A DNA stretch of 61,778 nucleotides, taken from an uncultured Candidatus Saccharibacteria bacterium. GTDB lineage: Bacteria; Patescibacteriota; Saccharimonadia; CAILAD01; JADZBC01. The stretch is taken from positions 1 to 61,778 of the forward strand of contig CAZCAO010000003.1 in NCBI GenBank assembly GCA_964496815.1, in the 5' to 3' direction. Below are positions 11,731 to 16,250 of the stretch, one piece after another. Within the stretch, counting starts at the first letter, position 1, and each line of letters opens with the position of its first letter. A program made the position numbers and the translations under genes. Under the pieces are notes generated by a model, which saw nothing but the letters and a program-made list of their open reading frames with translations, searched no databases and was not told the DNA's origin.

Positions 11731-13008
11731 ATGAAGCAAATTGTTAAAAAAATCCTCGTACGGAAGTTAACCAAGAAGGTTTCAACTCTTTTTGCAAATC
11801 GGGATTTAGTAGTCATTGCCGTAACGGGCACGGTGGGTAAGACTAGTACGAAGGTAGCCATTGCAACCGTTCTGCAGGCAGCAGGCTATAAGGTCGGCTT
11901 TACCGAGGATAGCTATAATAGCGATGTCGGCTTGCCTCTTAGTGTGTTTGGTTTGAAAGTGCCAGATAGACTTAGTAGTATCCGTGGTTGGCGCAGGGTT
12001 TTGCACCGTATGGACGAGATGATAGATGACTTTCCCTACGACGTACTTGTGCAGGAAGTTGCCGAAGACGATCTTGATTTGATGCTGCCATTTATGGAGC
12101 TGATTAAGCCTCGTATTTGTGTAGTCACAGGTGTTTCGTTGGCACATACTGCCAGGATGCAAGACATTGGCAAAATCACTCAGGACATTATTCGACTCGT
12201 CGGGCCTGCCAAAGCTATTATTTGTAATAATGACTTTGCCGAGTTGCGCGAAGCTGCGCTCAGTCCGGTCCTCACATATGCCACCCACGAGCAGGCCGAT
12301 GTTGCGTTGCTAGGGATGAAGCGTATGAGCTCTGGTACACTCGAAGCCGAAATCAAGATTACTGGCCGGACCACCAAGGTCAAGACGCAGCTCGTAGGCC
12401 GTCATAATCTTGCCGCCCTGCTTGCCGCTGCCGCCGTAGCGCATCAGCTTGAGGTGGACGATGCGATAATTGCTAAGGCATTGACTAGTGTGCCCGCTGT
12501 AAAGGGCAGAATGAATCTTTTGCCCGCCGTACAGGGTGCTCGATTGATTGATGATAGCTATAACGCTGCCAGTCCGATTGGGGTATTCGCGGCACTCGAA
12601 ACGCTTAGTGAAATGAAAGGTCGCAAGATCGCAGTGCTAGGTAATATGAACGAATTAGGCGCCAAGAGCGAAGTTGCTCATCGCGAGGTAGGTGAGGCAG
12701 CTGCTAAGATCGTAGATATGCTAATCGTAATTGGTCCAGATGCCGAGAAGTATCTTGCTCCTGCAGCAATTGAAGCGGGTATGGAAAAATCAAATGTGAA
12801 AGTTTTTCGAACGCCTTATGAAGCCGGTCATTTTTTGAAAAAGAAGTTGAGCAAAGGCGACACCGTGCTCGTTAAGGGCTCTCAGAACAAGGTATTCAGC
12901 GAAGAGGTTAGCCGAATTATTCTCGATAAGTCTCTGCGTCCACAAGATGTGTTGGTTCGTCAGTCTGCTTTCTGGCGTCGTAAGAAGAAGAAGGCGTTTG
13001 CGCAATAG
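11731..13008 (+). CDS. murF: Mur ligase, MurF-like
   Basis: VTGTVGKTS, SYNSDVG, IDDSYNAAS, LGNMNELG, VLVKGSQ. Confidence 0.85.
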   Translation: MKQIVKKILVRKLTKKVSTLFANRDLVVIAVTGTVGKTSTKVAIATVLQAAGYKVGFTEDSYNSDVGLPLSVFGLKVPDRLSSIRGWRRVLHRMDEMIDDFPYDVLVQEVAEDDLDLMLPFMELIKPRICVVTGVSLAHTARMQDIGKITQDIIRLVGPAKAIICNNDFAELREAALSPVLTYATHEQADVALLGMKRMSSGTLEAEIKITGRTTKVKTQLVGRHNLAALLAAAAVAHQLEVDDAIIAKALTSVPAVKGRMNLLPAVQGARLIDDSYNAASPIGVFAALETLSEMKGRKIAVLGNMNELGAKSEVAHREVGEAAAKIVDMLIVIGPDAEKYLAPAAIEAGMEKSNVKVFRTPYEAGHFLKKKLSKGDTVLVKGSQNKVFSEEVSRIILDKSLRPQDVLVRQSAFWRRKKKKAFAQ

Positions 13009-13009
13009 C

Positions 13010-13645
13010 ATGGATGGTGAAAAGCATTTAGACGTAGCTCATATATGGCAATTGGATCCTGATTCTCCAATTCCGGAAGACCAAAGACGACGCATGTGCG
13101 CACCTGCATCCGTCAATATGGTTTTGGACTACGTATTTGTGAAGCATGGCGAATATAGTTTCGCCCTGGATGCCATAGTGAAGGAAATGGAGAGCTTCGG
13201 CGGCAGGATAGTCGAGTATGGCTGGAAGCATTCGGCACAGGTCGATACCCTTAAGCACCATGGGCTTGTTGCATGGCGCAGGAACTGGCTCGCCCCCTCC
13301 CAAGATCCGAATTATTTTATACAAAACGAAGGTTATAATCAGGATCAAGTTGATGAGTTCTTAAGTCAGTTGGGGCAGGAGGATCAGAACGGCGGTTCAC
13401 CTCAGGATCGTGCCTGGTTTTGCATTAAACAATCGATCGACAACGGCCTACCTGTCATCATTAGCGTCAAAGCAGGCTTTAGTGAGAATGAAATAGGGCA
13501 CATGGTTGTAGTAAGTGGCTACACCAAGGATACGGTTGAGATCGTTGATCCGCTGCTTCCGCCAGGTGAACAAAAGCGTGTAGATCGAGATTATTTTTGG
13601 GAGTATTTTAAGCTTCAGGCGATTTTTGTCCGGGCTAAGACTTGA
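13010..13645 (+). CDS. C39-like papain-fold cysteine peptidase
   Basis: CAPASVNM (Cys), GHMVVVSGY (His), IVDP (Asp); ATG 1 nt after the murF stop. Confidence 0.75.
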   Translation: MDGEKHLDVAHIWQLDPDSPIPEDQRRRMCAPASVNMVLDYVFVKHGEYSFALDAIVKEMESFGGRIVEYGWKHSAQVDTLKHHGLVAWRRNWLAPSQDPNYFIQNEGYNQDQVDEFLSQLGQEDQNGGSPQDRAWFCIKQSIDNGLPVIISVKAGFSENEIGHMVVVSGYTKDTVEIVDPLLPPGEQKRVDRDYFWEYFKLQAIFVRAKT

Positions 13646-13670
13646 ACTTAACCATTTTTATTGTTAGACT
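13642..13670 (+). promoter_or_regulatory. Promoter of the Leu leader (TTGAAC-17-TAGACT)
   Basis: Exact 17-nt spacing; leader ATG 6 nt after the -10. Confidence 0.7.
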
Positions 13671-13676
13671 ATGCCC

Positions 13677-13730
13677 ATGAAAATTCAAAAACTTAACCTA
13701 CTAGCCCTCTTGCTCCGCTCGTCGCGGTAG
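13677..13730 (+). CDS. Leu-rich attenuator leader peptide MKIQKLNLLALLLRSSR
   Basis: 6 Leu codons within 8 consecutive codons, followed by antiterminator/terminator pairings, upstream of leuS. Confidence 0.8.
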   Translation: MKIQKLNLLALLLRSSR

Positions 13731-13752
13731 GTTTTTGTTGCACCCATTTTTT

Positions 13753-13782
13753 CAAAAGCCGCCGCAGGGCGGCTTTTGGTTT
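13753..13782 (+). terminator. Attenuator terminator
   Basis: CAAAAGCCGCC-GCAG-GGCGGCTTTTG 11-bp perfect stem followed by GTTT. Confidence 0.85.
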
Positions 13783-13832
13783 ACTGCCCTCGGCTTTTAC
13801 TAAACAAACCAGATTAGGATACAATAGACGTT

Positions 13833-16250
13833 ATGAAGAACGACACCCCAAAATACAACCCGCAAGAGATCGAGTCAAAATGGCAAAAGGTTTGGGCCGA
13901 GACAGGCTTGAACAAAACTCCCGATAACCCACATAACAAGTTTTATAACTTGGTTATGTTTCCGTACCCGTCGGGAGACTTGCACATTGGGCATTGGTAT
14001 AATTTTGGTCCAGCTGATACCATTGGTCGGTTTAATCGCATGCACGGTAAAGACGTGCTGCAGCCACTGGGTTATGACTCATTCGGCTTGCCGGCTGAGA
14101 ATGCCGCGATTAAGAAGGGTGTTCCAGCTGAAGTCTGGACTGATGAAAACGTAGGTCGTTTTCGTAATCAGTACAATCGTCTCGGTGGAATGTACGATCT
14201 TGATAAGGAAGTTGATACCTCTAAGCCCGAGTATTATCGCTGGACACAGTGGCTATTCTTGCGCATGCTCAAGGCCGGTAAGGCTTATCAAAATGACGGC
14301 TTGGTAAACTGGTGTCCCAAGGATATGACTGCCCTTGCCAATGAGCAGGTTATTCATGGCGAGTGCGAGCGCTGCGGTACGAAGGTAGAGCGCAAAAAAC
14401 TTAAGCAGTGGTACTTTAAGATCACTGATTATGCTGATGCCTTGCTGTATGACCTGGATGAGCTCAAATGGCCCGAGCGAGTTAAGACTATGCAGCGCAA
14501 CTGGATTGGACGTAGTGAGGGCGCCGAAGTGAAGTTCGAAGTTGAGGGGGACAAACATCTAACGGTCTACACAACTCGCCCCGACACTCTATATGGTGCA
14601 ACGTTCCTGGTTCTTGCGCCCGAGCACGAGCTGGTTGGCGAGTTAACTACCGAAGCCATGCGTGATGAGGTGGAGAAGTACGTTGAGTTAGCTGGAGCCA
14701 AGACGGATGTTGATCGCTTGGAGAACAAAGACAAGACGGGCGTGTTTACCGGCTCATATGCTATCAACCCAGTGAACAATGAGAAGTTGCCTATCTGGAT
14801 TGCTGACTACGTATTAATGGGGTATGGTACGGGCGCTATTATGGCGGTACCCGCTCATGATCAGCGCGATTTTGAGTTTGCCAAAAAGTACGACATCGAA
14901 ATAAAACAGGTTATTGCGGGCGGTGATGTGAGCGAAGCTGCCTATACTGGCGACGGTACGCTAGTTAATTCTGACGCATTGGATGGCATGGACGTTGCTT
15001 CCGCTAAGAGGGCTATCACGCAGCAGTTAGAGGGCAAGGGTAGTGGTCAGGCAAAGGTCCAATACAAGATACGTGATTGGCTAATCAGTCGCCAGCGCTA
15101 CTGGGGTGCGCCTATTCCCATTATCTATTGTGATACTTGCGGGGTAGTGCCAGTACCAGAAGATCAATTGCCAGTCGTATTGCCGCTCGGGCAAAAGTTT
15201 GATGAATCTGGCCAGTCGCCATTAGTGAATCACCCTGACTATACACATGTAGCATGCCCTAGCTGTGGCGGCGATGCCAAGCGTGAGACTGATACCATGG
15301 ACACCTTTGTGGACTCTAGCTGGTATTTCCTGCGCTATCCAAACCCGGACTATACCGAAGGGCCTTTTGATCCTGAAGCAGTCAAAAAGTGGCTACCTGT
15401 TGATAACTACATGGGTGGTATTGAGCATGCCATTCTTCACTTGCTCTACGCTCGGTTCTTTACGAAGTTCTTGCACGAGGAAGGGCTGATTAATTTCAAT
15501 GAGCCATTTATGCGTCTTATTAATCAAGGTATGATTCTTGGTTCAGACGGAGACAAGATGAGTAAACGTAAAGGTAACGTCGTAGACCCATTGGAGTATG
15601 TCGGCAAGTATGGCGCCGATGCAGTGCGTTTGTATTTGATGTTCATGGGGCCATATGAAGAAGGCGGACCTTGGGACCCTCAGCGCTTTGAAGGCACCTA
15701 TCGTTTTATTGGCAAGGTATGGGATCTGTACCGTGACTACGAAGCAGGTGAGGCGAACGCAGCTACAGAAACGGCCTTAGTGCGTCAGCTCCACAAAACC
15801 ATACGAAAAGTTACCAGCGATCTTGAGACTATTAAGTTCAACACCGCTGTTGCAGCTATGATGGAGTTTGTGAAATTTGCTTCATCGGTGCGACGCGACG
15901 GCGCGGTAAGTGAGCAGATGTGGCGCGAGGTTATTGGGCAATTTTGCCTCGTACTTGCACCTTTCACACCACACTTGGCAGAAGAACTTTGGCATGATCT
16001 GGGTAATGAAGAAAGTGTGCATTTGCAAACCTGGCCAAAATACGACGCAGAAATGGTCAAGGTTGATGAAGTAGTCATAGTGATTCAAGTAAACGGCAAA
16101 TTGCGCGGCGAGTTCCTGGCCGCCGCTGGCAGTACAAATGAAGCGCTCGAGGCTGCGGCACGTGAGCTGGCAGCAGACAAAAACTGGTATGAGGGCGAAC
16201 CAAAGAAGATTATTGTGGTACCAAACAAGCTTGTGAATATCGTCGTTTAG
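13833..16250 (+). CDS. leuS: Leucine--tRNA ligase
   Basis: MFPYPSGDLHIGH, CP1 editing domain (TTRPDT, GTGAIMAVPAHDQRD), WLISRQRYWG, KMSKR. Confidence 0.97.
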   Translation: MKNDTPKYNPQEIESKWQKVWAETGLNKTPDNPHNKFYNLVMFPYPSGDLHIGHWYNFGPADTIGRFNRMHGKDVLQPLGYDSFGLPAENAAIKKGVPAEVWTDENVGRFRNQYNRLGGMYDLDKEVDTSKPEYYRWTQWLFLRMLKAGKAYQNDGLVNWCPKDMTALANEQVIHGECERCGTKVERKKLKQWYFKITDYADALLYDLDELKWPERVKTMQRNWIGRSEGAEVKFEVEGDKHLTVYTTRPDTLYGATFLVLAPEHELVGELTTEAMRDEVEKYVELAGAKTDVDRLENKDKTGVFTGSYAINPVNNEKLPIWIADYVLMGYGTGAIMAVPAHDQRDFEFAKKYDIEIKQVIAGGDVSEAAYTGDGTLVNSDALDGMDVASAKRAITQQLEGKGSGQAKVQYKIRDWLISRQRYWGAPIPIIYCDTCGVVPVPEDQLPVVLPLGQKFDESGQSPLVNHPDYTHVACPSCGGDAKRETDTMDTFVDSSWYFLRYPNPDYTEGPFDPEAVKKWLPVDNYMGGIEHAILHLLYARFFTKFLHEEGLINFNEPFMRLINQGMILGSDGDKMSKRKGNVVDPLEYVGKYGADAVRLYLMFMGPYEEGGPWDPQRFEGTYRFIGKVWDLYRDYEAGEANAATETALVRQLHKTIRKVTSDLETIKFNTAVAAMMEFVKFASSVRRDGAVSEQMWREVIGQFCLVLAPFTPHLAEELWHDLGNEESVHLQTWPKYDAEMVKVDEVVIVIQVNGKLRGEFLAAAGSTNEALEAAARELAADKNWYEGEPKKIIVVPNKLVNIVV

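Follow-up and report, generated by a model that had tools for sequence, protein, structure and literature searches.

The gene leuS, encoding leucyl-tRNA synthetase (LeuRS), is preceded on a contig of an uncultured Candidatus Saccharibacteria bacterium by a compact arrangement of promoter, small open reading frame (ORF) and terminator, which raises the question of whether this bacterium reads its supply of charged tRNA-Leu through the translation of a leader peptide, and whether leuS is the gene so controlled. The window analysed here is the whole stretch of 61,778 nucleotides of contig CAZCAO010000003.1 (assembly GCA_964496815.1), and the entire element is contained in the 187-nt gap between a C39 peptidase gene and leuS. 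The original prediction, made from the letters of the window, had described a classical attenuator sensing Leu-tRNA upstream of leuS. We consider the element to be a ribosome-mediated (classical) transcription attenuator reading the supply of charged tRNA-Leu, with a probability of about 0.65. The Leu-sensing architecture of the original prediction, that is a leaderless Leu-rich ORF, helices 1:2, 2:3 and 3:4, and a stop codon within region 2, is supported by in silico folding, by conservation in eight sequences, and by another leader, of Tyr type, elsewhere in this genome, whereas the arguments for and against leuS as its target are about evenly balanced.

To follow the element across genomes, a covariance model was built from six leaders and searched in 60 genomes of the order, where G000 denotes the genome of the window, G001-G006 the other members of its genus, and L049 an extra metagenome variant. 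One copy was found in each of the seven genus genomes (E 1e-24 to 1e-30), always upstream of leuS, while the element was absent from the 53 other genomes of the order. The expectation that Leu-rich upstream ORFs would be conserved before leuS holds for these seven genomes but not for the 53 others of the order. Contigs fetched via LeuS homologues added one new variant and two near-duplicates, giving eight distinct sequences in total. A degenerate pattern of the leader DNA gave no match in a genome-contig collection that apparently lacks the close genomes. The same pattern had a single match among metagenome contigs, within a coding region of an unrelated contig, which was rejected as chance, and the weaker matches of the covariance model (G000:C2:55416, G050 and others) proved to be merely terminators of similar style.

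Several features point to the leader ORF being translated. Its ATG at 13677 lies 6 nt 3' of the -10 hexamer of an upstream promoter (P1), and its 17 codons include six for Leu (CTT 13692, CTA 13698, CTA 13701, CTC 13707, TTG 13710, and CTC 13713), so that six of 16 residues are Leu, compared with 9.6% genome-wide (binomial p 0.003). The eight leader peptides (MKIQKLNLLALLLRSSR, MKIQQLNLLGVLLSASR, MKIQQLNLLGLLLPASR, MKVQQQLNLAVLLLRAPR, MKVQRQLNLLALLLCAPR, MKVQQQLNLLGLLLRSSR, MKVQQHLNLLGLLLRSPR, and MKSQQLNLLGLLLRSPR) all contain five to six Leu, a count maintained via synonymous changes. The sole indel within the leader ORF is 3 nt long (one codon); the spacer behind it carries indels of 1 and 4 nt. 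At the Leu columns, six variants are synonymous and two nonsynonymous, versus four and 12 at the other variable columns (Fisher p 0.03; eight sequences), and the codon swaps observed there are CTT/CTC, CTA/CTG/CTC, TTG/TTA, and CTC/CTT. Between G000 and G004-G006, identity of the leader DNA is 75-84%, versus 65% in the first 900 nt of leuS. Because the Leu columns vary mostly synonymously and the others nonsynonymously, selection acts on Leu codons, reading frame, and stop context rather than on the whole peptide, and such a pattern is what one expects of a regulatory leader.

P1 itself has 8 of 12 consensus matches in the window genome and was hence not listed by the promoter scan. The hexamers at the same position in relatives have 9 to 12 of 12 matches (for example TTGACA-17-TATAAT in G001), and the seven other sequences carry TTGACA, TTGACT or TTGACG, a 17-nt spacer, and TATAAT, TAGACT or TAAACT. 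The claimed promoter and the leaderless ORF with its six Leu codons were located exactly where the original prediction had placed them, and the Leu run, whose conservation it had left to be checked, is kept in all eight distinct sequences.

According to minimum free energy (MFE) and consensus folds of the transcript, every sequence forms two hairpins, namely helix 1:2 and helix 3:4, the latter being the terminator. Region 1 comprises codons 4-9 of the leader, including Leu6, Leu8, and Leu9, and helix 1:2 is almost invariant, with 91% of cells paired across the eight sequences. The core of region 2 (CGGTAGGTTT) is identical in all eight, and its flanks differ in G006 and G002 only. The terminator, with its 11-bp stem, reads CAAAAGCCGCC / GCAG / GGCGGCTTTTG at 13753-13778 followed by GTTT, is conserved in the eight sequences, and shares its 5' arm with the antiterminator as had been proposed. 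The antiterminator had been described as an 8-bp pairing of GGTTTTTG (13730-13737) with CAAAAGCC (13753-13760); these segments do pair, but they are merely part of a 13-bp helix, GCGGU-A-GGUUUUUG with CAAAAGCC-GCCGC, which covers the whole 5' arm of the terminator and has 93% of its cells paired in the eight sequences.

The effect of a ribosome on these alternatives was predicted by masking the RNA it would cover and folding the nascent RNA as far as the terminator loop. A ribosome with its A site at Leu8 or Leu9 leaves region 2 free, and the antiterminator forms at -16.6 kcal/mol in the window sequence and at -14.6 to -16.6 kcal/mol in all eight; with the A site at the last Leu, just the 8-bp part forms (about -7 kcal/mol); and with the ribosome at the UAG, no competitor to the terminator is left. 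When the upstream part was put through 2000 dinucleotide shuffles, nine of them attained the energy of -16.6. The genome has 49 predicted terminators, and in four of these the 40 nt upstream sequester the entire GC core arm, the leuS leader having the best energy, while the total energy of the nascent RNA does not distinguish the element within these 49 (mean -12.8, sd 6). In silico, several features of a classical attenuator are found together, including mutually exclusive antiterminator and terminator, a helix 1:2 that overlaps the regulatory codons, and a UAG within region 2.

On this basis, we infer a series of steps leading from transcription start and leader translation through stalling at Leu codons and the choice between termination and read-through to more LeuRS from the read-through RNA. 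RNA from P1 would begin with the A of the ATG at 13677 or with a neighbouring nucleotide, and the 17-codon leader would be translated leaderless. If no translation took place, region 1 would pair with region 2 and the terminator 3:4 would form. When Leu-tRNA is plentiful, the ribosome would reach the UAG and cover region 2, the terminator would form, and the P1 RNA would end near 13780. When Leu-tRNA is scarce, the ribosome would stall at the Leu codons in region 1, best at Leu8 or Leu9, and the freed region 2 would pair with the whole 5' arm of the terminator, allowing RNA polymerase to continue. In the window genome, the read-through RNA would then cross the second promoter (P2) into leuS, and a starvation-induced transcript would be added to the constitutive leaderless transcript from P2.

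A second leader in the same genome follows the same design. Two genome-wide scans of the 52%-complete G000 for small ORFs beside terminators gave very few candidates, two of which have an amino-acid run fitting the gene behind, namely the Leu leader and a Tyr leader whose following genes encode a chorismate mutase (CM_2) and a prephenate dehydrogenase. The last codons of the Tyr leader (GUGGCGGCU) and the terminator arm AGCCGCCAC are perfectly complementary over 9 nt. In masked folds, a ribosome at the Tyr codons lets the antiterminator form at -18.3 kcal/mol, and one at the stop leaves only the terminator to form. The Tyr leader peptide is identical in three relatives (G001-G003), with synonymous changes only. 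In G023, which belongs to another family, a different leaderless Tyr-rich ORF (MIQFLQSSVTKYSYRAYGGIFCYR) with a complementary segment and a terminator precedes the chorismate mutase gene. Analogous leaders had been expected before other synthetases; an analogue of Tyr type was found, but not before a synthetase, and paralogous leaders of Ile type were not found by the two scans of the 52%-complete G000. The presence of the chorismate mutase and prephenate dehydrogenase genes also shows that the organism, presumed in the original prediction to be an amino-acid auxotroph, is not a complete one.

Table 1. Coordinates of the leuS leader, its flanking genes and promoters, and the Tyr-type leader (positions are those of the window unless a contig or locus is named).
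Feature	Position	Strand	Description	Basis
Upstream gene, Peptidase_C39_2 family	12947..13645	+		Pfam PF13529, E 1.3e-12
Promoter P1	13642..13670	+	-35 TTGAAC 13642-13647, 17-nt spacer, -10 TAGACT 13665-13670	sequence
Leader ORF (leaderless)	13677..13730	+	peptide MKIQKLNLLALLLRSSR, stop TAG 13728-13730	sequence; frame kept in 8 sequences
Region 1	13686..13702	+	5' strand of helix 1:2 (CAACAAC..AACCUACU)	MFE and consensus folds
Region 2	13724..13740	+	GCGGUAGGUUUUUGUUG, includes the stop codon	folding; pairs with region 1 or region 3
Region 3	13753..13765	+	CAAAAGCCGCCGC, 5' arm of the terminator	13-bp pairing with region 2, one bulged A
Intrinsic terminator	13753..13782	+	stem 13753-13763 with 13768-13778, loop GCAG, U-tract TTTTGGTTT	about -21 kcal/mol
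Post-terminator segments	13784..13798	+	4' CTGCCC 13784-13789; region 5 CGGCTTTT 13791-13798	complementarity
Promoter P2	13796..13825	+	-35 TTTACT, 18-nt spacer, -10 TACAAT (13820-13825)	promoter scan
leuS	13833..16250	+	leucyl-tRNA synthetase, 805 aa	Pfam tRNA-synt_1_2 at 6e-70, plus tRNA-synt_1 and Anticodon_1
Tyr-type leader	G000 contig C1 ~152460-152640; locus L071 660-838	+	TATAGT, 6 nt, ATG, ORF MSKHELRAFSYYYTDTFRGGY with Tyr-Tyr-Tyr run	

The second promoter bears on the question of the target. The -10 hexamer of P2 ends 7 nt 5' of the leuS ATG (13833), as had been noticed, and P2 is kept in every member of the genus. Most of the other genera examined show a similar layout at leuS, with a -10 hexamer, 6-7 nt, and ATG, the spacing reaching 14 nt in a few. 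In G000, a TAnnnT hexamer 5-8 nt 5' of the ATG, often GGTAYAAT, precedes about 65 of 374 long ORFs, and a Shine-Dalgarno (SD) sequence about 150 of 374; expression from leaderless mRNAs therefore seems to be one of the main modes used by this organism. Because the same layout occurs in most other genera and at about 65 other genes of G000, a second promoter with a leaderless leuS start is supported by sequence comparison. Of the two transcripts originally proposed, one constitutive and leaderless and one inducible by starvation, the leaderless start of the first is supported, whereas the second would depend on read-through from P1.

Several observations weigh against an attenuator that controls leuS. 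P2 is placed between the terminator and leuS, only about 50 nt behind the former. An SD sequence at a working distance is lacking at the leuS AUG (an AGGA stands 13 nt upstream), so that the P1 read-through RNA may be translated poorly at leuS. In G004, G005, and G006, the leader is located 400-490 nt upstream of leuS with another ORF between them. A contig with an 83% identical LeuS retains the C39-leuS neighbourhood with 28 nt between the genes and no leader. Other genera have just the -10 hexamer before leuS, and one of them (L012) has a plain terminator at the same place after the C39 gene, which is why the terminator may also, or mainly, end the upstream operon. Finally, helices 1:2, 2:3, and 3:4, with 91-93% of their cells paired, show no covariation support, being nearly invariant; since they hardly vary, covariation neither supports nor contradicts them. 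Control of leuS is plausible but unproven because of the placement of P2, the long transcript without an SD sequence, and the ORFs inserted in three relatives.

The inserted ORFs are not of one kind. In G005 (L038 1706-1837) and G006 (L040 1698-1847), the insert is an ORF of 43-49 aa, led by an SD sequence and carrying the conserved motif YPQAESCP.YGT, for which no paralogues were found (one weak match, inside another gene, was chance), and G004 (L039 1200-1523) has an unrelated 107-aa ORF with no Pfam match. Behind each inserted ORF, a strong long hairpin without a U-tract is followed by the conserved P2.

A further helix was detected behind the terminator. Segment 4' is able to pair with GGGCGG of the terminator 3' arm, and region 5 (CGGCTTTT, 13791-13798) with AAAAGCCG (13754-13761, the 5' flank and arm of the terminator), forming a helix 3:5 that spans the U-tract. 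The partners are AAAAGCCG/CGGCUUUU in G000, G002, and G003, UUCCAGGCCG/CGGCCUGGAA in G004 and G005, and UCCAGACCG/CGGUCUGGA in G006. Four of the eight pairs change on both sides, a covariation score attained by none of 500 shuffles, and for five of the six sequences tested, no more than 15 of 5000 shuffles attained the complements of 8-10 nt. The equivalent complement at the other 48 terminators of the genome is at most 6 nt. G001 has no 3:5 complement, and L049, with nearly the same sequence there, pairs partly; G004-G006 carry the arm sequence a third time, about 20 nt further on, where it could compete for that segment. Because helix 3:5 is possible only in RNA that extends past the terminator, it implies that read-through transcripts probably exist and are under selection, and would therefore matter to the cell.

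From this helix, a wider proposal can be drawn, which we regard as doubtful. Helix 3:5, a part foreign to the classical model, would refold the read-through RNA once the choice to terminate or not has been made, and it could act as a processing or stability signal deciding the expression of the SD-less leuS or of the inserted small ORFs. The element would belong to a small set of leaderless attenuators in Saccharibacteria, with a Leu type located at leuS or at small ORFs and a Tyr type at the genes for chorismate mutase and prephenate dehydrogenase.

It is also conceivable, although unlikely, that the Leu attenuator is real and that its main target is something other than leuS, either whatever directly follows the terminator, such as the small ORFs in G004-G006, or P2 itself, modulated by transcription passing over it, with leuS expressed essentially from P2. 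In agreement with this, P2 is conserved throughout the genus and, among the examined genera without the leader, in most; the ORF between leader and leuS in three of eight sequences and the absence of an SD sequence for leuS on long transcripts would fit as well. In the other five (G000, G001, G002, G003, and L049), however, the terminator is directly followed by nothing but P2 and leuS, and the ORF inserted in G004 is not the one inserted in G005/G006, so that no conserved target emerges. Since the hairpins after the inserted ORFs are without U-tracts, transcription could proceed from there into leuS. A target other than leuS would moreover make the match between Leu codons and leuS coincidental, despite the Tyr codons that stand before the chorismate mutase and prephenate dehydrogenase genes.

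Rather unlikely is the explanation that the element is a stand-alone small gene, encoding a hydrophobic peptide of 17-18 aa or a small RNA of about 105 nt, with its own promoter and terminator and merely a neighbour of leuS. Such a gene would be in keeping with the strength of both promoter and terminator and with the separate promoter of leuS, and the element both stays in place when genes are inserted between it and leuS and can be lost. Yet conservation is confined to Leu positions, frame, and stop context, the other residues varying freely, and with eight residues the hydrophobic core of the peptide falls short of a membrane helix. A stop codon inside a segment with two alternative pairing partners is likewise not explained by a stand-alone gene; a covarying helix across the terminator makes sense only for read-through RNA, and the Tyr-type twin precedes genes of the tyrosine branch. 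That the hairpin is a plain terminator of the upstream Mur ligase-C39 operon, with the small ORF and the hexamers arising by chance, is disfavoured as highly improbable, because, in spite of the plain terminator at this position in L012 and of similar CCAAAAGCC...GGCTTTTGG terminators elsewhere in the genome, promoter, ATG, frame, Leu codons, and stop are kept in eight sequences whose neighbouring coding DNA is 65% identical, and the element is retained in G006 although a gene for a DUF5715 protein stands there in place of the C39 peptidase gene.

Read as a classical attenuator, the element has a close parallel in Streptomyces. Classical attenuators upstream of leuS were predicted there by Seliverstov et al. 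2005 (PMC1262725), and transcriptomics of S. lividans TK24 reported a leaderless 12-codon LeuL2 (MRAVRLLLSEPR) with a hairpin and U-stretch upstream of leuS (PMC8079986). Both systems share a leaderless Leu-rich ORF and a Rho-independent terminator upstream of leuS, and, judged by peptide and layout as published, the peptides end alike (LLLSEPR* in LeuL2 and LLLRSPR* in G005 and G006). Unlike LeuL2, which belongs to another phylum, the ORF here is longer (17-18 codons with 5-6 Leu in the pattern L-N-L-L-x-L-L-L), the terminator is followed by a second promoter and a leaderless leuS start, and a covarying post-terminator helix is present. The leader-peptide design at leuS is thus already reported in Streptomyces, and the Saccharibacteria element extends a known mechanism to a little-studied phylum; no description of leader-peptide attenuation in Saccharibacteria was found in the literature searched.

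The geometry obtained by masked-ribosome folding is that of the trp, leu, his, and pheST attenuators. The textbook synthetase case is the pheST attenuator of E. coli with its pheM leader. It has in common with the present element an aminoacyl-tRNA synthetase operon, a leader peptide rich in cognate codons, alternative hairpins, and a terminator, and differs in its Phe codons and in a leader that is SD-led rather than leaderless; pheST was also cited as a parallel for the Streptomyces attenuators (PMC1262725). The enterobacterial leuL (Leu_leader, RF00512) shares the 1:2 / 2:3 / 3:4 logic and a series of consecutive Leu codons, CUA among them, but controls biosynthetic genes and is SD-led. An Rfam cmscan of 13000-14500 with E up to 10 gave no leader family, including Leu_leader, and only two chance-level matches, to mir-6 and P9.

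T-box leaders (RF00230) also sense tRNA charging and control terminator read-through before synthetase genes, but they sense uncharged tRNA directly, without a ribosome. The original prediction had set classical attenuation at this locus against the T-boxes that Firmicutes use for synthetases. The classical design is indeed indicated here, but the genus also has T-box-like leaders, and the leuS design was known from Streptomyces. The T-box-like leaders score below threshold (27-32 bits) and were seen at L051 1501-1760 (G002), L052 (G003), L053 (G006), and L054 (G001). The copies in G002 and G003 have a AAGGUGGCACCGCG box and a terminator and precede a 266-aa ORF followed by a trpS-like gene, and the copy in G001 precedes an IleS-like gene. 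The T-box family had no match at the leuS locus or elsewhere in the 52%-complete G000, and the region before its IleS-like gene had no Rfam match.

Candidate Phyla Radiation (CPR) bacteria that live as episymbionts rely on their hosts for most amino acids, and, to our knowledge, gene regulation in CPR bacteria is almost unknown. If the attenuator reading is true, the switches at leuS and at the tyrosine branch would show that CPR bacteria monitor tRNA charging directly, that leaderless translation is able to drive attenuation outside Actinobacteria, and that a single tiny genome can hold attenuators together with T-box-like leaders. As the mechanism is textbook and reported for Streptomyces leuS, the gain would be in breadth and not in principle. 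The sequences concerned are short and concrete and are amenable to testing in a heterologous host.

The genome of the window has 381 kb at 52% completeness, and those of its relatives have 0.6-1.0 Mb; one LeuS homologue is labelled as Candidatus Saccharibacteria in the sources. Datasets with close relatives include JGI 3300043411, 3300056999 and 3300013121, ENA ERZ22302045, and SRR7082978. The TGA stop of the C39 gene overlaps the -35 hexamer of P1. In G025, which represents another genus (L005 ~1365-1500), a leaderless ORF of 34 codons (MNNKLRHHYAYLIQIARVSHQQPNMILSVARGEV), which has no Leu run, extends into the leuS start (TAATG), an arrangement that suggests translational coupling rather than attenuation.

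The LeuS proteins themselves also vary. Many Saccharibacteria LeuS of 950-1090 aa have a NUDIX domain (PF00293) inserted after the editing domain, such as proteins P0007, P0009, P0017, and many others, as well as the one at locus L047, while the LeuS of the window (805 aa) has no such insertion. The open frames of LeuS in G004-G006 are longer (981-1138 aa) and more divergent (53-58% identity).

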